This document shows, one piece after another, positions 3,966 to 28,615 of a DNA stretch of 64,000 nt. The position numbers and the translations under genes were made by a program. The stretch comes from an uncultured delta proteobacterium (GTDB taxonomy: Bacteria > Desulfobacterota > Syntrophia > Syntrophales > UBA2185), in assembly GCA_963695875.1 (NCBI GenBank), contig CAVOID010000003.1, forward strand, positions 1 through 64,000, read 5' to 3'. A model generated the notes under the pieces. It made no database searches. It had not been told where the DNA came from and worked only from the letters and a program-made list of their open reading frames with translations. How positions within the stretch are numbered: the stretch's first letter is position 1; every line of letters begins with the position of its first letter.

Positions 3966-4955
3966 ATGAATCAGGGAGAGATCATCATTTACCAAACAGA
4001 GGATGGTAAATCGTCGTTAGAGGTTAAATTGCAGGAGGACACCGTCTGGCTTACCCAGAAGCAGATCGGTGTCCTTTTTGAAAAGGACAGCGATACAATC
4101 GGGCTGCATATCAGGAATATATTTAAAGAAGGTGAGTTACGCCTGAGGCAATCCGAGGAATCCTCGGTAGTTCAAGAAGAGGGCGGACGGCAGGTCCGTC
4201 GTAAAATGAAATTCTATAATCTGGACGTCGTTATTTCAGTTGGTTACCGGGTTAATTCAAAAAGAGGCACCCAATTTCGCATCTGGGCAAATAGCATATT
4301 GAAAGAATATCTAGTCAAGGGATATGCTCTCAACGAGAAGCGATTGAAAGAACAACTGCAAAGATTCGAAAACCTCAAACAATCCATCAGACTAATCGAA
4401 AACGTTACTCGTCATAAGGCTTTAAGCATAACAGAATCTGAAGGATTATTAAAAGTCATCGCCGATTTTACTTATGCCTTGGATATATTGGATCAATATG
4501 ATTATCAGAAACTGCAGATCGTCGACACATCCCATAAAGCCGTTATTCCTATTTCTTACGAGGAAGCCATGCATGCGGTTCAGAAACTGCGGGGGAAGCT
4601 GAGCAATGCAGAGCTGTTCGGGCGGGAAAAGGATCATTCTTTTAGAACTTCTTTAGATACAATCTATCAAACCTTTGATGGAAAAAATCTGTACCCCAGC
4701 ATAGAGGAAAAGGCAGCTCATTTGCTCTATTTCATCGTTAAGAACCACTCTTTCATCGATGGAAACAAACGAATCGCTGCTGCTATATTTACCTGGTTTC
4801 TGGAGAAGAATCAGTTATTGTATAACGCCGATGGCACGAAACGAATTGCGGATAATGCTCTGGTGGCATTGACCTTGATGATCGCAATGAGCGATCCTAA
4901 AGATAAAGACATTATGATTAAGATCATTGTCAATTTAATCAACGAGCATAACTGA
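3966..4955 (+). CDS. RhuM-family virulence protein fused to Fic/Doc domain
   Basis: RhuM motifs TVWLTQKQ and YNLDVVISVGYRVNSKRGTQFRIWA; Fic motif HSFIDGNKRIA. Confidence 0.9.
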   Translation: MNQGEIIIYQTEDGKSSLEVKLQEDTVWLTQKQIGVLFEKDSDTIGLHIRNIFKEGELRLRQSEESSVVQEEGGRQVRRKMKFYNLDVVISVGYRVNSKRGTQFRIWANSILKEYLVKGYALNEKRLKEQLQRFENLKQSIRLIENVTRHKALSITESEGLLKVIADFTYALDILDQYDYQKLQIVDTSHKAVIPISYEEAMHAVQKLRGKLSNAELFGREKDHSFRTSLDTIYQTFDGKNLYPSIEEKAAHLLYFIVKNHSFIDGNKRIAAAIFTWFLEKNQLLYNADGTKRIADNALVALTLMIAMSDPKDKDIMIKIIVNLINEHN

Positions 4956-4961
4956 GGGACT

Positions 4962-5624
4962 ATGATGAAAAAAATCCAGGACATTCCCAAGCGTGACCGG
5001 CCCCGTGAGAAGTTGCAGGAGAAAGGCGCTCAGTCTTTGTCCGATCTGGAACTGATGGCCATATTGGTTGGTAGAGGAACAGAGGGTCATGACGTCATGT
5101 CCGTGGCAGAGCGCATCTTGAAGACTCTGGACTCATCTCACGGAAAGCTGAGGTTGGAAGAACTCCAGGAGATTGAAGGCGTCGGACCGGCAAAAGCGAC
5201 CCTTATTGCTGCGGCACTTGAATTTGCGCGCCGTCGAATTCGTCCTGAAGGATTAAAAATATCGTTCCCTCCCGATGTACTGCCATTGATACGGCATCAC
5301 GGAGATCGCAAGCAGGAACACTTCATCTGTATTTCTTTGAATGGCGCGAATGAGGTTATAGCGCATCGCGTAGTTTCCGTTGGACTTGTAAATAAAACGC
5401 AGGTTCATCCGCGGGAAGTTTTTGCAGATCCCATCACCGACCGGGCTTCAGCTATTATCGTTGCTCATAATCATCCTTCGGGTGACCTAAAGCCGAGTAA
5501 AGAAGATACTGAGATCACGAAGCAGTTAAAAGCCGCTGGTGAGACATTAGGGATTAAATTGCTCGATCATATCATTTTTAACCAGAAGGAATATTATAGC
5601 TTTTTGGAAAAGGGGATATTGTAA
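4962..5624 (+). CDS. radC: RadC family JAB/MPN-domain protein
   Basis: RPREKL...LSDLELMAIL, HhH GVGPAKA, VHPREVF, AHNHPSG, LLDHII. Confidence 0.95.
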   Translation: MMKKIQDIPKRDRPREKLQEKGAQSLSDLELMAILVGRGTEGHDVMSVAERILKTLDSSHGKLRLEELQEIEGVGPAKATLIAAALEFARRRIRPEGLKISFPPDVLPLIRHHGDRKQEHFICISLNGANEVIAHRVVSVGLVNKTQVHPREVFADPITDRASAIIVAHNHPSGDLKPSKEDTEITKQLKAAGETLGIKLLDHIIFNQKEYYSFLEKGIL

Positions 5625-22364: not shown

Positions 22365-23546
22365 TTAATTTGTATGATCTCCTTGATACTTTAGGAAACG
22401 AAAAAGAGCAACGCTTATCAGGATCAGCACGCCAACCAATATAATGGCGGAGGCAAAGTGCCCTGCATCGGCCATTATTCCCATGCCTGCCGGAATTAGA
22501 CCGGCTCCGGCCAGGTAAGCGAAAAAGATTGTCATCGATACAGCAACGTTGCGGACATTCGGAGGGCTGATGCTGGATAGAAAGGTAAACGCGGCCGGGT
22601 AAAAACAGGCGGACATCATCGGCTGGATAAATACCACTAACAAGACCCATTTCCCGCTTACGATTCCCAAGAGGATCGTCATGATTCCGTTAAATGTGAG
22701 AACGATCTTCATTGTTTGCTTCGGCCCTATACGATCTGAAATCCAGCCGGCAAAAAAACCGATGATTATAGCGGGAATTCTCGATAATCCGAGGATTGTG
22801 TTGGCATAACTGCTCTCGAATCCTCTTTCCGCCACCAGGAAAAGGGGGAGCATACTGAACACGCCCATGCTTGTCGCTATGGCGACACTAAAAAGAATAG
22901 TCATGATCCAAAATACAGGTTGCTTCATGAGAGGCCGAACATTTTTGAAATTGGGCGGCTCGCCTTTAAAATCTCCACCCAGATTCAGGCGATAAAACAG
23001 CAGACCCAAAACAATCGCCGCAACGCCTATTGATGCCAGGACTCCCTGCCAAGTAAACCATTGGAGGAGTAATTCGGATATGAGAGGTGCAGCGATATAG
23101 GCAAGGGAGGGAGCCGTTTCATGAACCGCGATAGCCTTCCCCCAGTTGCCGGCCGATATTGAAGAAGTGATGGTGGTAATCCCCGAAGGCAGATATGCCC
23201 CGGCAGCCAAACCAAGAAAGACCAATCCCAGATAGATGGTCCAATGGGTTTTTCCGGCCGCGACAAAAAGCAAAGTAATACCCGTAGCAACGGAAGAAAG
23301 GGCGATCATCCTTCGATGGGTAAACCATCTGGAAAGATACCCTGATCCCACAAGCGACGCACAGTAACCGAGAGAAATCAGTAAAAAGAAGCTGCCTGCC
23401 TCTGTGTGATCCAGTCCGAGATCATATTCAATAGTAGGCATCAGCGGGGCTGGCAACAATCTGGAAAGGAAGTTGAAAAAGAATATTCCCGCTATCAGAA
23501 CGAGGAGTGCGACTTTTGATTTCCGAGGGGAAAAAGTTTCACTCAT
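22365..23546 (-). CDS. MFS transporter
   Basis: About 12 TM segments; GWISDRIGPK MFS loop motif. Confidence 0.9.
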   Translation of the reverse strand: MSETFSPRKSKVALLVLIAGIFFFNFLSRLLPAPLMPTIEYDLGLDHTEAGSFFLLISLGYCASLVGSGYLSRWFTHRRMIALSSVATGITLLFVAAGKTHWTIYLGLVFLGLAAGAYLPSGITTITSSISAGNWGKAIAVHETAPSLAYIAAPLISELLLQWFTWQGVLASIGVAAIVLGLLFYRLNLGGDFKGEPPNFKNVRPLMKQPVFWIMTILFSVAIATSMGVFSMLPLFLVAERGFESSYANTILGLSRIPAIIIGFFAGWISDRIGPKQTMKIVLTFNGIMTILLGIVSGKWVLLVVFIQPMMSACFYPAAFTFLSSISPPNVRNVAVSMTIFFAYLAGAGLIPAGMGIMADAGHFASAIILVGVLILISVALFRFLKYQGDHTN

Positions 23547-23551
23547 GGATC

Positions 23552-24001
23552 TCAGGTTTTTACTCCCGTTGTCTTTTTATTGCCATAAACCTGCACGATG
23601 ACCCGTCGCTGCCTCGGGCGATTGTCAAAATCAATAAAGACAACCTGCTGCCATGTTCCAAGAGAAAGGTGCCCGTCAATAACAGGAATAGCCAGGGATG
23701 GACCCAGCAGGGCCGCTCTTACATGGGCATGCCCGTTTCCGTCACCCCATCGCTCATTGTGTCTGTAATATTTATCTTCCGGAGCGAGATGCTCTATAGC
23801 TTCCTTCAAATCATCCACCGCGCCATGTTCATATTCAATAGTAGTTATCGCCGCTGTCGAACCGGGCACAAAGAGATGGACGTGTCCCTCCTCTATACCC
23901 GATACAACTAGTTTTTCAGATATCTGGCTGGTCATGTTGATAACATCAGTATTACCCGATGTGGAAAAAGCGAGATAAGAAGTAATTATGTCCAAAGCCA
24001 T
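23552..24001 (-). CDS. yjbQ: YjbQ / UPF0047 family protein
   Basis: GSTAAITTIE, H...GDGNGHAH, LGTWQ, DFDNRPR. Confidence 0.9.
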   Translation of the reverse strand: MALDIITSYLAFSTSGNTDVINMTSQISEKLVVSGIEEGHVHLFVPGSTAAITTIEYEHGAVDDLKEAIEHLAPEDKYYRHNERWGDGNGHAHVRAALLGPSLAIPVIDGHLSLGTWQQVVFIDFDNRPRQRRVIVQVYGNKKTTGVKT

Positions 24002-24095
24002 ATGACCTCATCCTTTCCTTTATTATGAAAAAATTCCCCAGTACCCTCTCCAAGAGGATATCGGGGAAGCAAAGTCCGATAGACATTTACAAACT

Positions 24096-24761
24096 CTATA
24101 TGTACGGGAAAACATTCTGCATGACCATCTGGAAGTTCGATTTTACCCGTTCGGCGCCATCAACGATCTCCATATGACCGGGAAAGAGAGTCTCGACCTC
24201 AAGCTTGGAAAGTGTCGTAATACTTTTTTTCAGAAGTCTGCCACTTCCTCCCGGAAAATCTGTTCTTCCCACGTTCTGGCTGAATATCACATCTCCCGGA
24301 AAGAGGACTTTTTTAGCGGGCCAGTATAACCCTATGGAGCCGGGCGAATGACCGGGGACATGTAATATCTGGAAGGTCTCATCTCCAAGGACAATATTTC
24401 CGGTTTTCATGATCAAATTGATCTTGACATCGGGAGGGTTTAATCCGAACAGGTTATATAATTTGGCGCCATCGCCTTTCATGAAAGCGATCTCGTCTTC
24501 ATGTAGGGCTATTTTCACATCGGAATCATTGAAGAGTCCCGATCCCTCGTAGTGGTCAGGGTGGGAATGGGTGTTAATAATATAGCGGATATCATTTCTT
24601 GCGATCCCGTCCAGTTCCATGCTTTCCAGGAGATTGGGCACATAAGACGTCAACCCAGGGTCAACTAGGGCCTTTACGTTACCGCTGATGTAGAAACTGT
24701 TGCAGTTATTGGCGTAATAATCCGTCCATTCATAAACATATATATCTTCCGTGAATCTCAT
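24096..24761 (-). CDS. MBL-fold metallo-hydrolase
   Basis: THSHPDH, PGHSPGS, GRTDFPGG, PGH; start at MRFTE after GGAG RBS. Confidence 0.9.
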   Translation of the reverse strand: MRFTEDIYVYEWTDYYANNCNSFYISGNVKALVDPGLTSYVPNLLESMELDGIARNDIRYIINTHSHPDHYEGSGLFNDSDVKIALHEDEIAFMKGDGAKLYNLFGLNPPDVKINLIMKTGNIVLGDETFQILHVPGHSPGSIGLYWPAKKVLFPGDVIFSQNVGRTDFPGGSGRLLKKSITTLSKLEVETLFPGHMEIVDGAERVKSNFQMVMQNVFPYI

Positions 24762-24882
24762 TTGCGCTCCTTTGTTAACACATGTTTTTTTACGATGGAG
24801 GTTTAACCATCCTGGCAATATTACTGTGGTATCAATTTACATGCAAGAATAATATGAAAGTCCTCGGATAGTAAAAAAAATA

Positions 24883-24919
24883 TTGACAAAAGGAAATATA
24901 GTTGTATGATACAACCATG
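24883..24919 (+). promoter_or_regulatory. sigma70 promoter with overlapping palindromic operator for marR-hgcAB (leaderless)
   Basis: TTGACA (24883-24888)-16 nt-TATGAT (24905-24910); perfect IR GTTGTAT-G-ATACAAC (24901-24915); ATG at 24917. Confidence 0.75.
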
Positions 24920-25378
24920 AAAAAGACCAAAAAGAATAATCAGGAAATCCTTGCTCTGATATCGGACCTCTGCCAGGTCATCCGCTGCTGCCGGCAGGAT
25001 GCCGTGTTTTGTGAGGATGTGACCTTTTCCCAGTTTCTCATACTCAATCAGGTGGCAAAGAAAGGTACTCTGAAAATGCTGGAGCTTCATCAAATCCTGG
25101 CTGTTGATAAGAGCACAACGACCAGGCTTGTGAATCCATTGGTCAGGCAGGGACTGATTAAGCGTGAGAGATCGGATCATGACTGCAGGGCAGCAAATTT
25201 AAAATTGACACCGGCGGGAAAAGAAGTTCACAGAAAAGTCTGGTTGTGCCTTGAGGGTTTTGTGGATGCCATTGGAGGAGGAATTCCCGATGAGAAAAAG
25301 ACAGATGTGTATGATGCCGTTAAGCTTTTTATCAGTGCGGTGAAAAATGCATCATCAGCCTGTTCGTGTAATGAGTGA
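24917..25378 (+). CDS. Cys-rich MarR family transcriptional regulator
   Basis: VTFSQFLIL...VDKSTTTRLVNPLVRQGLIKR...D.R....LT..G wHTH; LCQVIRCCRQDAVFC and C-terminal CSC. Confidence 0.88.
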   Translation: MKKTKKNNQEILALISDLCQVIRCCRQDAVFCEDVTFSQFLILNQVAKKGTLKMLELHQILAVDKSTTTRLVNPLVRQGLIKRERSDHDCRAANLKLTPAGKEVHRKVWLCLEGFVDAIGGGIPDEKKTDVYDAVKLFISAVKNASSACSCNE

Positions 25379-25396
25379 CTTTAAAGGAGAAATGCA

Positions 25397-26572
25397 TTGA
25401 GTCAAAATTATTGTGAAGTTAAAACAAGCAAGGTCGGCAAAAATGGTATTGAGGCAGCACCGATTATTTTTCCCGTGATATCGCCATTATTGAAAACAGG
25501 CGAGACCCGGACGAATCTTCCAGACCTGAAACAGTGCTTTGTCATTGGTTCGATTGAAACACCGGTCGGTCTGGTGCCGCAGGTTTCCTCTGCCTTAACA
25601 TGGATAGACCGCTGGGGAACCATTAAAGCACGCTGGGGAGTCGGCCGTATGAATTATGCTGTTGAGCCCGGTCTCTACGCCCTTGGGAACCCATACAGTC
25701 ATTCGCATGTACTGGTTACTGCGAATTACAAGATGAGCTTTGACCGTCTCCGTGAAACCCTTTCCGGCCGGGATGTCTGGCTGCTTGTTCTGGACACAAA
25801 AGGGATTAACGTCTGGTGTGCTGCGGGAAAAGGAACCTTCGGTACTGAGGAACTGGTGCGTCGGATTGCATTAAGCGGCTTGAACAAGGTCGTAAGACAC
25901 AGGGAACTCATTCTGCCCCAGTTATCCGGCCCCGGTGTTGCCGCCCATCAGGTTAAGAAATATTCCGGATTCAGGGTTCACTACGGACCTATCCGGGCTT
26001 CGGATTTAACGGCCTACTTAGAAGCCAGTCTCAAAGCGGCGCCTGGAATGCGTTTGAAGACTTTCCCGCTGCGTGAGCGGTTTGCCTTGATCCCAATAGA
26101 GATTGTGGCGGCTTTCAAGGTGAGCCTGCTTATTCTTCTCACTTTCTTCCTTCTGGGTGGTCTCGGAGGGCCGGACGGATACTGGGCCAATGCAATGAAT
26201 TATGGCCTTTTTGCCATTATTGCGATACTCTCGGCAATCATGGCCGGTGCCGTCCTGACACCGATCCTGCTTCCCATTCTTCCCGGGAGAGCCTTCTCGT
26301 TCAAAGGTTGTATTGTCGGTGTGGTCATTGCATTGACCCTCTTAATAGTGAGGAATCCTGACCTTGCCTTCTGGCCGGGCAGGTTAGAAATGGCGGCATG
26401 GCTATTACTGGTGCCGGCCTTAGCGGCGTATCTTGCCATGAATTTTACCGGCGCCTCAACGTACACTTCTCTTTCCGGTGTGAAGAAGGAAATGCGGGCT
26501 GCGCTTCCCCTGCAAATAGGGGCTGGCGTGGTCGGACTTGGACTCTGGCTGGTGTCACGATTTATTGCATAG
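25397..26572 (+). CDS. hgcA: Mercury methylation corrinoid protein HgcA
   Basis: Cap-helix motif GINVWCAAGKGTFG, VLVTANYKMSFD, C-terminal TM region with NFTGASTYTSLSGVKKEM; AAGGAG RBS before TTG start. Confidence 0.97.
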   Translation: MSQNYCEVKTSKVGKNGIEAAPIIFPVISPLLKTGETRTNLPDLKQCFVIGSIETPVGLVPQVSSALTWIDRWGTIKARWGVGRMNYAVEPGLYALGNPYSHSHVLVTANYKMSFDRLRETLSGRDVWLLVLDTKGINVWCAAGKGTFGTEELVRRIALSGLNKVVRHRELILPQLSGPGVAAHQVKKYSGFRVHYGPIRASDLTAYLEASLKAAPGMRLKTFPLRERFALIPIEIVAAFKVSLLILLTFFLLGGLGGPDGYWANAMNYGLFAIIAILSAIMAGAVLTPILLPILPGRAFSFKGCIVGVVIALTLLIVRNPDLAFWPGRLEMAAWLLLVPALAAYLAMNFTGASTYTSLSGVKKEMRAALPLQIGAGVVGLGLWLVSRFIA

Positions 26573-26582
26573 GAGCTTGCAA

Positions 26583-26912
26583 ATGGAAAACATGATCTAT
26601 CTGAAGGATGTAGTAACTCTGAATCTGAATGAGGAAAAATGTATTGGCTGCGGTATGTGCATCGAGGTCTGTCCCCATGCTGTCATCGGTATGAACGGTG
26701 CGGAGCGTGCATGGATTCAGAAGAGGGATGCCTGTATGGAATGCGGGGCATGCAGCCGCAATTGCCCCACAGAGGCAGTTTCCGTGCAGAGCGGTGTGGG
26801 CTGTGCTGCCGCCATCATAAATACAATGTTGGGCCGGAGCGACGCTTCCTGTTGTGGTCCGATTGATTCTTGTGAAAAGACAGAAAATCAGGGAAAGACC
26901 TCCTGCTGCTGA
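26583..26912 (+). CDS. hgcB: Mercury methylation ferredoxin HgcB
   Basis: CIGCGMCIEVCP and CMECGACSRNCP 2[4Fe-4S] motifs, GVGCA, terminal CC; AGGAG RBS; directly after hgcA. Confidence 0.97.
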   Translation: MENMIYLKDVVTLNLNEEKCIGCGMCIEVCPHAVIGMNGAERAWIQKRDACMECGACSRNCPTEAVSVQSGVGCAAAIINTMLGRSDASCCGPIDSCEKTENQGKTSCC

Positions 26913-27060
26913 AATAAGTTGCCCTAATGTCATTGCTTGGGTGAATTACAGGTCGGGAGCAGTACGAAAATATTAACACTCCTTTTGACTGCATACGTTA
27001 GATCATTTTTTCACCGATTAAATTATCCATTGACACCTGTTGTTTTTGCTCAGAACTCAT

Positions 27061-27104
27061 TAATAGTTCATTGAAGGGATATACTCCCGTCTTTTGAACT
27101 ATTA
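27061..27104. terminator. Hairpin between convergent hgcB and enoyl-CoA hydratase genes
   Basis: TAATAGTTCA/TGAACTATTA outer stem with inner GGGA/TCCC. Confidence 0.4.
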
Positions 27105-27319
27105 TGCAATGCTCCACTTACGAATCTTCATAACAGCTTTTTGTGATAAATGGTTAAGATTACGGTTTAAAAGTGAGAGTCGCTCCAGCGGCAGATGAGA
27201 CGTCTCTCATAACATATGCACATGTGGTGCGGGTCTACAGTTATTGACCTGCCATCTTACCAGGCTTGTGGCCTGGGTTTAGCGGGCGATGAGGAAATAC
27301 AGAAAGTTTCTTTGAAGAT

Positions 27320-28105
27320 TTACTGTCCCTTGAAGGTGGGCTTTCTTTTTCCTATAAAGGCTGCTATTCCCTCCTTTGCGTCCGCTGTTTTGCCAACCCA
27401 GATCATCCCTCGTCGCTCCAGTTCGAGCTGCCGCTCCAACAGTCCAAAGAAGGCGTTATTGAAGTTCTCCTTCACGATGGAGTAAGATACTGTCGGGCCT
27501 GAGGCAAGCTTCAGAGCAAGATCCATGGTAGTTTTTTCAAGCTCGCTGTCATCGACCACTTTATTGACGAGCCCCATTTGGAGGGCATCCTTAGCATCGA
27601 ATACAGGGTCCATGTACACCAGCTCTGACGCCTTGCTAAATCCGATCAGTAGCGGAACCAGTAGGGTCCATGCCCCGTCGGGAATCAGCCCTATTGAAGT
27701 GTAAGCCTGCCTGAACTTCGCGGATGAAGCGCATATTCTCAGGTCACACGCGGCAGCAATACTCACTCCGGCGCCGGCAGCCGTCCCGTTGATCATGGCA
27801 ATGACGGGCTTTGAAGTCCGGCGGATGCCAACGATGGTAAAGTGTAAGAACTTCGTCAGTTGCCGCAGTGTCTCGCTTGTATCAGGGGAGCTGTCAAACA
27901 GCGCCACGTCGCCTCCCGCGCAGAAGGCCTTGCCCTCTCCCGTAAGTACGATCACCTTTACATCCCTGTCATCTGCGCAGATTTCCAGGGCCCTGATGAT
28001 GTCGCTAAATAAATCAACATTAACTGCATTAAACGCTTTGGGCCGGTTGAATTTGATGACGCCAACTTGCTCCATCTTTTTAAAAATAATATTTTCAAAC
28101 TGCAT
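27320..28105 (-). CDS. Enoyl-CoA hydratase/isomerase family protein
   Basis: NRPKAFNA, AFCAGGD, INGTAAGAG, ACDLR, GLIPDGA, EGIAAFIGKRKPTFKG. Confidence 0.93.
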   Translation of the reverse strand: MQFENIIFKKMEQVGVIKFNRPKAFNAVNVDLFSDIIRALEICADDRDVKVIVLTGEGKAFCAGGDVALFDSSPDTSETLRQLTKFLHFTIVGIRRTSKPVIAMINGTAAGAGVSIAAACDLRICASSAKFRQAYTSIGLIPDGAWTLLVPLLIGFSKASELVYMDPVFDAKDALQMGLVNKVVDDSELEKTTMDLALKLASGPTVSYSIVKENFNNAFFGLLERQLELERRGMIWVGKTADAKEGIAAFIGKRKPTFKGQ

Positions 28106-28158
28106 TTCCCCTTCCTCCTTCATTCATTGATATCAGTAATTTTTTACCTTTTTAGTCT

Positions 28159-28192: not shown

Positions 28193-28615
28193 TTAAAGGT
28201 TATTGTTGAGCTTTTTCAATAGATGAAACAGAATTTCTTTTTCATCGTTAGAGATACCCTTGTATGAATGGGCTCTCAATTTGTGCGCAATGAGTTGGAA
28301 GTCAGTTTTCAATGCTGTCCCCTTCCTGGTCAAAGTAATAAAATTGATTCGATTATCGGCATGATGTCGCTTTTTCTCCACTAAGCCCAGTTTGATCAAC
28401 TTATTAACTAGAGCTGTGATCGTAGACTTATCCTTGTCTATTATCCTTGCTATCTCCGACATGGGTAATGACCCACGCATCATCAGAGATCCGAGGATCT
28501 CGCCGTGAGACGGGGCCAATCCTTTGATGCGATGGGCCTTCATTTCATGAGTAAGGAACCTACTGGCCTTGTACTGTATACGTCCGATCAAAAAGATGAT
28601 CTGATCCTTTTTCAT
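28193..28615 (-). CDS. MarR family transcriptional regulator
   Basis: DKDKSTITALVNKLIKLGLV...DNR....LT..G. Confidence 0.9.
   Translation of the reverse strand: MKKDQIIFLIGRIQYKASRFLTHEMKAHRIKGLAPSHGEILGSLMMRGSLPMSEIARIIDKDKSTITALVNKLIKLGLVEKKRHHADNRINFITLTRKGTALKTDFQLIAHKLRAHSYKGISNDEKEILFHLLKKLNNNL

Follow-up and report, generated by a model that had tools for sequence, protein, structure and literature searches.

The control of the mercury-methylation genes hgcA and hgcB, as well as the purpose of the HgcAB proteins, are open questions in mercury biogeochemistry. We analyzed a stretch of 64,000 nucleotides from an uncultured delta proteobacterium of the order Syntrophales (positions 1 to 64,000 of contig CAVOID010000003.1; this whole stretch is called the window, and gene coordinates are given in its numbering), in which hgcA and hgcB directly follow a gene for a cysteine-rich regulator of the MarR family. 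The locus raises the question of what this regulator does to hgcAB and to what it responds. The answer that we favor is that hgcAB is under the control of an autorepressing MarR that is released by a thiophilic metal(loid). Taken as a whole, this statement appears moderately probable to us; its parts are held with different degrees of confidence, as given below.

The marR-hgcA-hgcB locus and its promoter

The three genes are co-oriented on the plus strand. The first, marR (24917-25378), has an ATG start, is predicted to be leaderless, and encodes a protein of 153 amino acids that matches the Pfam families MarR_2 and MarR (PF12802, 42.8 bits with a cutoff of 27; PF01047, 38.4 bits with a cutoff of 24.6). 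The second, hgcA (25397-26572; TTG start), encodes the corrinoid protein HgcA of 391 amino acids, which scored 460.6 bits against NCBIfam model NF040863 (cutoff, 275) and whose cap-helix motif NVWCAAGK conforms to the pattern N(V/I)WCA(A/G)GK. The third, hgcB (26583-26912), encodes a 2x[4Fe-4S] ferredoxin of 109 amino acids with Fer4 domains, two CX2CX2CX3C motifs, and a C-terminal CC, which scored 117.4 bits against NF040864 (cutoff, 99). An earlier reading of the DNA letters, made without database searches (the sequence-only reading), had named HgcA and HgcB and described three co-oriented genes with gaps of 18 and 10 bp. Both identities and the layout were reproduced here. That reading had also named a separate promoter or terminator between marR and hgcA as an observation that would contradict it. 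The promoter and terminator scan found neither a promoter-like nor a terminator-like site in the 18-nt marR-hgcA gap of the window. This gap contains a Shine-Dalgarno sequence, AAAGGAG (25383-25389, plus strand), 7 nt ahead of the TTG start of hgcA, and hgcB likewise has a Shine-Dalgarno sequence. In the proposed mechanism, marR, hgcA, and hgcB would form one transcription unit read from a single sigma70-type promoter.

The candidate promoter lies on the plus strand directly ahead of marR. Its -35 hexamer TTGACA (24883-24888) and its -10 hexamer TATGAT (24905-24910) are separated by a 16-nt spacer and match the consensus at 11 of 12 positions. It was the best of five promoter-like sites in positions 24000-27600, a count that by itself is not significant, as 4.6 sites are expected by chance. 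The -10 box sits within a perfect palindrome, GTTGTAT-G-ATACAAC (24901-24915, no strand assigned), which has the 6-3-6 form GTTGTA-N3-TACAAC, ends 1 nt before the ATG of marR, and is the predicted MarR operator. The sequence-only reading had described the same promoter, with the -10 box inside the palindrome and the ATG adjoining. The ATG begins only 7 nt past the last base of the -10 box, so that neither a leader nor a Shine-Dalgarno sequence would fit before marR. Transcription would then start at or beside the ATG and yield a leaderless mRNA, and a MarR dimer bound to the palindrome would cover the -10 box together with the start site, shutting off its own gene and hgcAB.

With up to one mismatch, GTTGTA-N3-TACAAC occurs once in the window, where 0.09 occurrences are expected and 9 of 100 shuffled sequences reach one. 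Without mismatch, it is a single site in the organism's own 2.86-Mb genome (82.6% complete), in which a regulon search found no second exact operator. Three one-mismatch sites in this genome were rejected as further operators, as their number is near that given by chance (by our estimate about 6 per 2.86 Mb, for 12 fixed bases), although a control search of the genome with the reversed pattern gave none.

Conservation of the module and its palindrome

We surveyed the neighborhoods of related marR genes in three samples. The first comprised 61 related genomes of the same family and order, in which a protein search was applied with an ortholog threshold of E 1e-36 or better. The second was a genome collection of 185,579 species, in which 196 stretches encode a relative of the MarR; the best 80 of these 196 are the 80 loci referred to below. 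The third was a phylum sample of 401 genomes, with matches of at least 136 bits. In the first sample, 22 of the 61 genomes possess an ortholog, and two of these have a second copy. hgcA lies directly downstream in 20 of the 22 primary loci and is followed by hgcB wherever the locus is long enough. The exceptions are one locus with only an 89-residue hgcA remnant and one that ends inside marR at a contig end. Both second copies also adjoin an hgcA. In the second sample, hgcA is immediately downstream in 78 of the 80 loci, the other two being cut by contig ends, and in the phylum sample all 12 matches adjoin hgcA. The 80 loci are titled Syntrophales, Smithella, Desulfomonilia, Desulfobacterales, Desulfatiglandales, or unclassified (delta)proteobacterial metagenome-assembled genomes (MAGs).

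The genes upstream of the module are far less constant. In the window, genes for an MBL-fold hydrolase, a UPF0047 protein, and an MFS transporter (22365-24761, minus strand) are divergent from marR. As upstream neighbors, the MBL-fold, UPF0047, and MFS genes are common to only 15, 13, and 3 of the 80 loci, respectively, and only among the closest relatives. Since so few flanking genes are shared, marR-hgcAB is regarded as a conserved unit that travels. Within this unit the genes are closely spaced, with a median hgcA-hgcB gap of 10 nt across the loci. When the longest hgcA frame is taken, the marR-hgcA gap is at most 35 nt in 61 of 78 loci; when an in-frame TGA in hgcA is read through, this is the case in 70 of 78 loci, with a median of 3 nt. 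In the 17 loci whose gaps are longer, a search ahead of hgcA found no second operator with fewer than four mismatches. The TGA codons lie in N-terminal extensions of hgcA, as Cys-TGA in loci L049, L051, and L053 and as Thr-TGA in L050, L052, L054, L055, and L089. The Cys-TGA extensions agree with a published selenoprotein form of HgcA, and both HgcA and HgcB are reported to occur as selenoproteins (bioRxiv 10.1101/2022.07.06.499078). The hgcA of the window lacks an in-frame TGA, and its N-terminal part has a single Cys.

A survey of hgcA neighborhoods had been suggested by the sequence-only reading, and the palindrome, its overlap with the -10 box, and the leaderless ATG proved to be conserved in orthologous marR-hgcAB loci. 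The palindrome is exact in 63 of the 80 loci and has one mismatch in the other 17, and it is exact in all eight phylum-sample loci analyzed (L131-L138). TTGAC is found 18-20 nt ahead of the palindrome in 78 of the 80 loci, corresponding to 16-18 nt between the hexamers, and the -10 positions of the orthologs read TA-N3-T. An in-frame ATG lies 1 nt past the palindrome in 75 loci and 4 nt past it in the remaining 5. There is room for a Shine-Dalgarno sequence before marR in none of the 80.

A palindrome at this position could also be an element of the promoter and the leaderless start only, with the cysteines of the MarR being structural and the protein sensing nothing or an organic ligand. The six bases at the center also serve as the -10 box, the right arm is the discriminator beside the start, and MarR proteins often bind small organic ligands. 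However, the left arm, whose GTTG lies outside the -10 box, is conserved to the same degree as the right arm. Single mismatches in the palindrome are uncompensated, unlike those in an RNA stem, and in paralogs and in a sister clade the outer arm bases are altered symmetrically (ATTGTA..TACAAT and TTTGTA..TACAAA), as one would expect of a dimeric protein. Palindromes of the form GTTG-N7-CAAC, which is common to the operator described here, are also kept upstream of genes of the MarR_ars type, a group of arsenic-responsive regulators discussed below. These genes are not leaderless, in contrast to the predicted leaderless start of the hgcAB-linked marR with its operator over the -10 box. In addition, Cys32 and Cys111 of the MarR are invariant, and a candidate selenocysteine (Sec) variant exists. 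We consider it very improbable that the palindrome is a promoter element and nothing more. The arm conservation, the uncompensated mismatches, and the symmetric changes favor a protein operator. A conserved palindrome over the -10 box can be compared with the MarR-family trait of an operator that overlaps the regulator's own promoter, binding being a prediction in the present case. An architecture of one leaderless operon with an operator over the -10 box and autorepression is, in our judgment, very likely. Judged from these comparisons, marR-hgcAB with its docking site is a real module, conserved in about a hundred related bacteria.

Several loci show variants of this arrangement. In L034 (G004:C11), marR is truncated at about codon 32 and merges into hgcA, and the operator is kept at one mismatch. 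In L025 (G059:C54), the first 36 marR codons and the operator are deleted, and the -35 box is kept. hgcAB is intact in both, and these two loci may be natural derepressed variants. Paralogous cassettes with 40-43% identity were found in L155 (G013:C33:20600-24200) and L156 (G020:C48:3200-6800), both with the gene order VKOR, marR, hgcA, hgcB, and an LMWPc (ArsC-type) gene. One or both outer bases of their operators are changed (ATTGTA..TACAAT in L155), and the first cassette of G020 retains only the 89-residue hgcA remnant. The sister clade (L139-L142, from genomes G104, G351, G141, and G265) consists of Cys-bearing MarRs that score 87-90 bits against the profile, carry the motif FCxGVTMSQC, and do not lie beside hgcA. 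In L140 and L142 of this clade, a TTTG.A-N3-TACAAA repeat follows TTGACA, without deviation in L142 and with one additional mismatch in L140. More distant Cys-rich MarR clades, one with three vicinal CC pairs and the other with a CC..QC motif, are encoded directly upstream of hgcA in L158 (G060:C1:280000-283200) and L143 (G448:C41). It seems that MarRs of different lineages came to be linked to hgcAB on more than one occasion. The window itself contains a second MarR gene (28193-28615, minus strand), which is cysteine-free and adjoins an enoyl-CoA hydratase gene (27320-28123, minus strand). Its product is 35% identical to the hgcAB-linked MarR over 68 residues and looks like an ordinary, unrelated regulator.

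MarR cysteines and the relation to MarR_ars

The window MarR has cysteines at positions 19, 24, 25, 32, 90, 111, 149, and 151, among them all those listed in the sequence-only reading. We aligned 74 distinct MarR orthologs and counted the cysteines in each column. Cys32 and Cys111 are present in all 74, Cys25 in 72, and Cys151 in 71. Cys24 and Cys149 are each present in 56, a Cys at position 152 is present in 30, Cys19 is found in 21, and Cys90 occurs in the window protein only. The earlier expectation of a conserved cysteine set was thus borne out for Cys32, Cys111, Cys25, and the C-terminal Cys151 and in part for Cys24; it did not hold for Cys19 and Cys90. The codons, all on the plus strand, place Cys24-Cys25 (24986-24991) at the end of helix alpha1, Cys32 (25010-25012) in the alpha1-alpha2 loop, Cys111 (25247-25249) in the middle of helix alpha5, and Cys149-Ser-Cys151 (25361-25369) in a C-terminal tail that is floppy in the structural model. 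Cys32 is also invariant in MarR_ars-type and more distant clades.

MarR_ars, a repressor released by As(III) and Sb(III), is a relative that the sequence-only reading did not name. AdMarR_ars of Achromobacter deleyi As-55 is reported to repress its own gene and arsV and to be released from DNA by As(III) and Sb(III), with Cys36, Cys37, and Cys157 being essential (Yu et al., bioRxiv 10.1101/2021.08.12.456183). We searched 72,556 plasmids with the window MarR as the query. Matches covering at least 80% of the protein were found in four records, three of which also match the ArsP-linked MarR of L146. The two records whose surroundings were read place the MarR gene in an arsenic island; its neighbors are arsN1, arsD, and arsA in one record and arsQ, arsL, arsM, and arsR in the other. 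These two MarRs match the window MarR with tblastn E values of 7e-8 and 3e-7, and one of them carries Cys at positions 36, 37, and 157. Most of the plasmid matches were set aside as generic MarRs covering half of the protein, and 83 of 99 came from Ralstonia.

Cys37 of the plasmid MarR with Cys at 36, 37, and 157 aligns with Cys32 of the window MarR, and the C-terminal CC of the MarR_ars-type proteins (Cys157/158) aligns with the CSC tail. MarR_ars and, by prediction, the hgcAB-linked MarR are MarR-fold autorepressors with a Cys just before helix alpha2 and a C-terminal Cys. However, the targets of MarR_ars are arsV, arsN, or arsP, whereas the predicted target of the hgcAB-linked MarR is hgcAB, and Cys111 and Cys24/25 have no counterpart in the MarR_ars-type proteins. 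We did not file the window MarR as a member of MarR_ars, because its Cys36-Cys37-Cys157 triad is incomplete. On the alignment, the hgcAB-linked MarR is better described as a sister of MarR_ars, with the same anchor Cys, tail Cys, and operator type and a putatively relocated third ligand.

Arsenic genes are also found near the module. With five queries, an ars-type gene was detected within 2.5 kb in 8 of the 80 loci. In L073 (2-2298), acr3, a small thioredoxin-like gene, and a gene for an ArsP-like permease precede marR-hgcAB on one strand. In L103, marR, hgcA, and hgcB are followed by an AhpD-like CxxC gene and then by acr3 (downstream genes, 4489-5439), all co-oriented. The more distant Cys-rich MarRs adjoin an ArsP_1 permease or a DsrE-like gene. 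Among the hgcA loci without an hgcAB-linked MarR, the gene directly upstream of hgcA is of the ArsR type in L120 and is acr3 in L116. L120 belongs to a genome of the window's own family, in which the ArsR-type gene replaces the MarR.

An ArsR-type regulator of hgcAB has been described previously. ArsR2 (DND132_1054) of Pseudodesulfovibrio mercurii ND132, which is of the ArsR/SmtB type, reportedly controls hgcAB, and a response to arsenic is described for it (Gionfriddo et al., bioRxiv 10.1101/2022.10.17.512643). Like the window MarR, it is a Cys-rich winged-helix regulator encoded directly upstream of hgcAB. However, it belongs to PF01022 rather than PF01047 and has a different cysteine arrangement (Cys47, 49, 86, and 88), and the available part of the preprint describes no operator for it. 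So far, testing is reported for only one regulator of hgcAB, of the ArsR type, in a single Desulfovibrio-like strain. Regulators in the position of the window MarR have been noticed as well. An uncharacterized "putative transcriptional regulator" immediately upstream of hgcAB, i.e., in the same position relative to these genes, was reported in 112 genomes (McDaniel et al., PMC7438021), and the permafrost MAG series used in that study (fen_ and bog_ MAGs) is also among the loci analyzed here. A MarR upstream of hgcA is mentioned in one sentence by Zhang et al. (2023; PMC10349881), who name Geobacter daltonii FRC-32 and Dethiobacter alkaliphilus AHT1 as carriers. The accessible text of these two papers has no family analysis, operator, promoter, cysteines, or TGA clade; their supplements or tables may name the hgcAB-linked MarR. 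No paper combining hgcAB with a promoter and a palindrome was found in the literature searched, whose scope left most subscription journals outside. New here are the operator and leaderless promoter with the numbers given for them, the set of conserved ligands, the link to MarR_ars at the level of single residues, and the TGA clade described below.

A TGA clade and the candidate inducer

In one clade of hgcAB-linked marR genes, an in-frame TGA stands exactly at the Cys111 column. This is the case in all three DNA instances, which lie outside the window: L138 (1813-1815), from genome G407, and L159 (2304-2306) and L160 (493-495), the two metagenome contigs that the metagenome scan gave. In all three, the frame runs 45-48 codons past the TGA; in L159 and L160, it leads to the conserved C-terminal Cys, with hgcA behind and the operator and ATG in front. 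A search with the 113-residue N-terminal part returned 12 protein clusters with 54-100% identity. Eleven of these, with lengths of 100-117 residues, stop one residue short of the Cys111 column, and the twelfth (86 residues) ends earlier. A hairpin that resembles a selenocysteine insertion sequence (SECIS), with a 7-bp stem and a 7-nt loop, begins 13 nt after the TGA and is conserved at the nucleotide level in all three instances; L160 differs by a single U-G change at the base of the stem. It was not seen in 11 folded Cys-form orthologs. The bases after the TGA are conserved beyond the protein requirement; the 67-nt fold after the TGA is no better than that of shuffled sequences (z = -0.19), and only the local hairpin is conserved. 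G407 encodes SelB (361.9 bits; cutoff, 242.25) and a tRNA-Sec (76 bits; gathering score, 47). No further TGA case was found among six matches in the order and class of G407.

From these sequence features, the TGA at residue 111 is probably a selenocysteine codon. In the TGA clade, Ile-Phe replaces Cys24/25, and three soft ligands remain, namely, Cys32, residue 111, and one C-terminal Cys. The clade points to residue 111 as the functional center. In the literature searched, no MarR linked to Sec or to a SECIS was found, and MarR is absent from the preprint of Haft and Gwadz and from a 2026 review of the prokaryotic selenoproteome. If the assignment is true, the MarR of the TGA clade would be the first selenocysteine-containing transcription factor, as far as the literature searched shows. 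A relative of the TGA clade in L161 (2001-2506) is Cys-less, with no Cys at column 32 or 111, and is 40% identical. A near-palindrome lies in front of this gene, and a second palindrome and a new open frame follow at once, where the contig ends.

We consider it likely that the hgcAB-linked MarR senses its signal through Cys or Sec. The proposed sensor is a soft-ligand site formed by Cys32, Cys111 (for which one clade probably has Sec), and a C-terminal Cys. Cys24/25 would be accessory ligands, and the binding of a thiophilic metal(loid) to this site would release the repressor. By homology to MarR_ars, the likeliest ligand would be As(III), Sb(III), or a trivalent organoarsenical, and Hg(II) is possible. 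Whether a trivalent metalloid is the natural inducer is nearly balanced, with doubt slightly ahead. A more specific proposal assigns residue 111 the role of sensing nucleophile in a soft-metal(loid) switch dedicated to mercury methylation. As Sec in one clade, this residue would, along with Cys32 and the C-terminal Cys, make up an S2Se site that binds As(III), Sb(III), or Hg(II), so that methylmercury would be induced by metalloids. This proposal is tentative.

The same residues might act as a thiol/selenol redox switch without a metal, in which Cys32 and Cys111 (or a tail Cys) form a disulfide, selenylsulfide, or persulfide bridge that causes release, as in OhrR, MexR, and MgrA. Oxidants, electrophiles, or sulfane sulfur would be the triggers. 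OhrR and other MarRs that respond by Cys oxidation have the same fold, a Cys in the alpha1 region combined with a distal one, and a promoter overlaid by an AT-rich palindrome. OhrR (NF052638) is also the best NCBIfam match of the window MarR, although the score of 41.7 bits is far under the cutoff of 200. Cys/Sec exchange, which the TGA clade suggests for residue 111, is typical of redox-active residues, and AhpD-like CxxC, VKOR, and thioredoxin-like genes lie beside some loci. MarR proteins are described as sensing reactive oxygen species and sulfane sulfur via Cys (PMC11211675). However, the OhrR-like alpha1 residue, Cys19, is not conserved in the hgcAB-linked MarR, the nearest characterized relative, MarR_ars, answers to As(III) as well as to Sb(III), and arsenic genes recur in the neighborhoods. 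The induction of an oxygen-sensitive corrinoid/Fe-S pair under oxidative stress would, moreover, make little physiological sense. We consider a redox switch unlikely.

The structural context was examined with an AlphaFold2 model of the window MarR, which shows ordinary MarR topology (mean predicted local distance difference test [pLDDT] score, 81.4), with helices at residues 2-26, 37-49, 54-61, 65-77, 99-121, and 125-146 and the wing at 81-97. The top Foldseek matches are MarR structures (E of about 3e-7; template modeling score, 0.58-0.75), and searching the PDB by sequence and by fold brought up nothing but generic relatives of MarR. The Zn sites of AdcR are reported to involve E24 together with C30 in the loop and E107, H108, and H112 in alpha5 (PMC6224198). 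The ligands of AdcR/ZitR thus come from the same elements as the conserved cysteines of the window MarR, i.e., the end of alpha1, the alpha1-alpha2 loop, and the middle of alpha5. Since Cys32 in the loop and Cys111 in alpha5 lie in the elements that build the AdcR Zn sites, a metal site joining the DNA-binding and dimerization parts is structurally plausible. In contrast to the window MarR, the AdcR/ZitR proteins, as described, use His and Glu rather than Cys as ligands, and metal activates their DNA binding.

This coincidence of positions, as far as the model can place them, would also suit a structural or co-repressor metal site, in which Cys25, Cys32, Cys111, and Cys151 hold Zn(II) or an Fe-S cluster and the loaded form binds DNA, as in AdcR/ZitR. 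Derepression would then follow metal or iron limitation, O2, or NO. Four near-invariant cysteines are consistent with such a site, ZitR structures are among the fold matches (ranks 41 and 49), and three N-terminal cysteines plus one distant Cys recall the ligation of FNR-type clusters. However, the window MarR scored only 18.8 bits against the AdcR/ZitR model NF038251 (cutoff, 175), the three soft ligands of the TGA clade fit trigonal binding of the As/Hg type better than a four-ligand Zn or Fe-S site, and the homology to MarR_ars indicates release on binding. We regard this alternative as improbable.

A further alternative is a dedicated sensor of Hg(II) or methylmercury, in which Hg(II), the known substrate, binds to an S2(S/Se) site and thereby turns on the methylation genes. 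The regulated genes are those of HgcAB, whose two proteins themselves reportedly occur as selenoproteins. Three-thiolate sites bind Hg(II) in MerR, and the affinity of Hg for selenols is very high. However, the recurrent neighbors of the module are arsenic genes, and no mer gene turned up among the translated neighbors, at which no query for mer genes was aimed. hgcA is said not to be induced by Hg, and in one tested system, that of ArsR2 in ND132, hgcAB is reported to have answered to arsenic. Any thiolate site binds Hg(II) in vitro, so that specificity is hard to argue. A sensor dedicated to mercury has, in our estimation, a low probability.

Several points weigh against a metal(loid)-released repressor of hgcAB, the reading that we prefer. 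Repression, the transcription start, and co-transcription are predictions, and so are the ligand, the arrangement of its site, and the direction in which the system responds. By analogy, the sign of the response could be the opposite, since AdcR and ZitR, with the same elements, bind DNA in the metal-loaded form, and the four conserved cysteines would also suit Zn or an Fe-S cluster. Confidence in the AlphaFold2 model is low for the alpha1-alpha2 loop (pLDDT of about 61) and the tail (about 46), and a spatial meeting of the cysteines is a conjecture. The identity of the window MarR to MarR_ars-type proteins is only 22-25%, and the equivalent of Cys36 is Phe31, so that the published triad is not intact. 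The five queries that detected ars-type genes elsewhere found none in the window. Among the 61 related genomes, 35 have hgcA, and 13 of these 35 lack the hgcAB-linked MarR, indicating that the MarR is not obligatory for hgcAB. The marR-hgcA gaps of 82-252 nt in 8 of 78 loci could hold signals of their own, and in L087 and L090 the long gap contains an inverted repeat.

The marR module represents a second, widespread candidate control module of hgcAB. It consists of an operator of 15 bp, a leaderless promoter, and a sensor with three or four residues as candidate ligands. Through its TGA clade, a regulator would join the known bacterial selenoproteins. The Syntrophales, which carry the module, are named as peatland methylators in the title of a published paper. 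If arsenite, antimonite, or mercury releases the repressor, methylmercury formation would depend on metalloid exposure, and the native role of HgcAB would tie to arsenic-type detoxification. If the proposed role of residue 111 is true, Syntrophales and related anaerobes living in peat and sediment would produce methylmercury as an induced response to metalloids rather than as a constitutive side activity.

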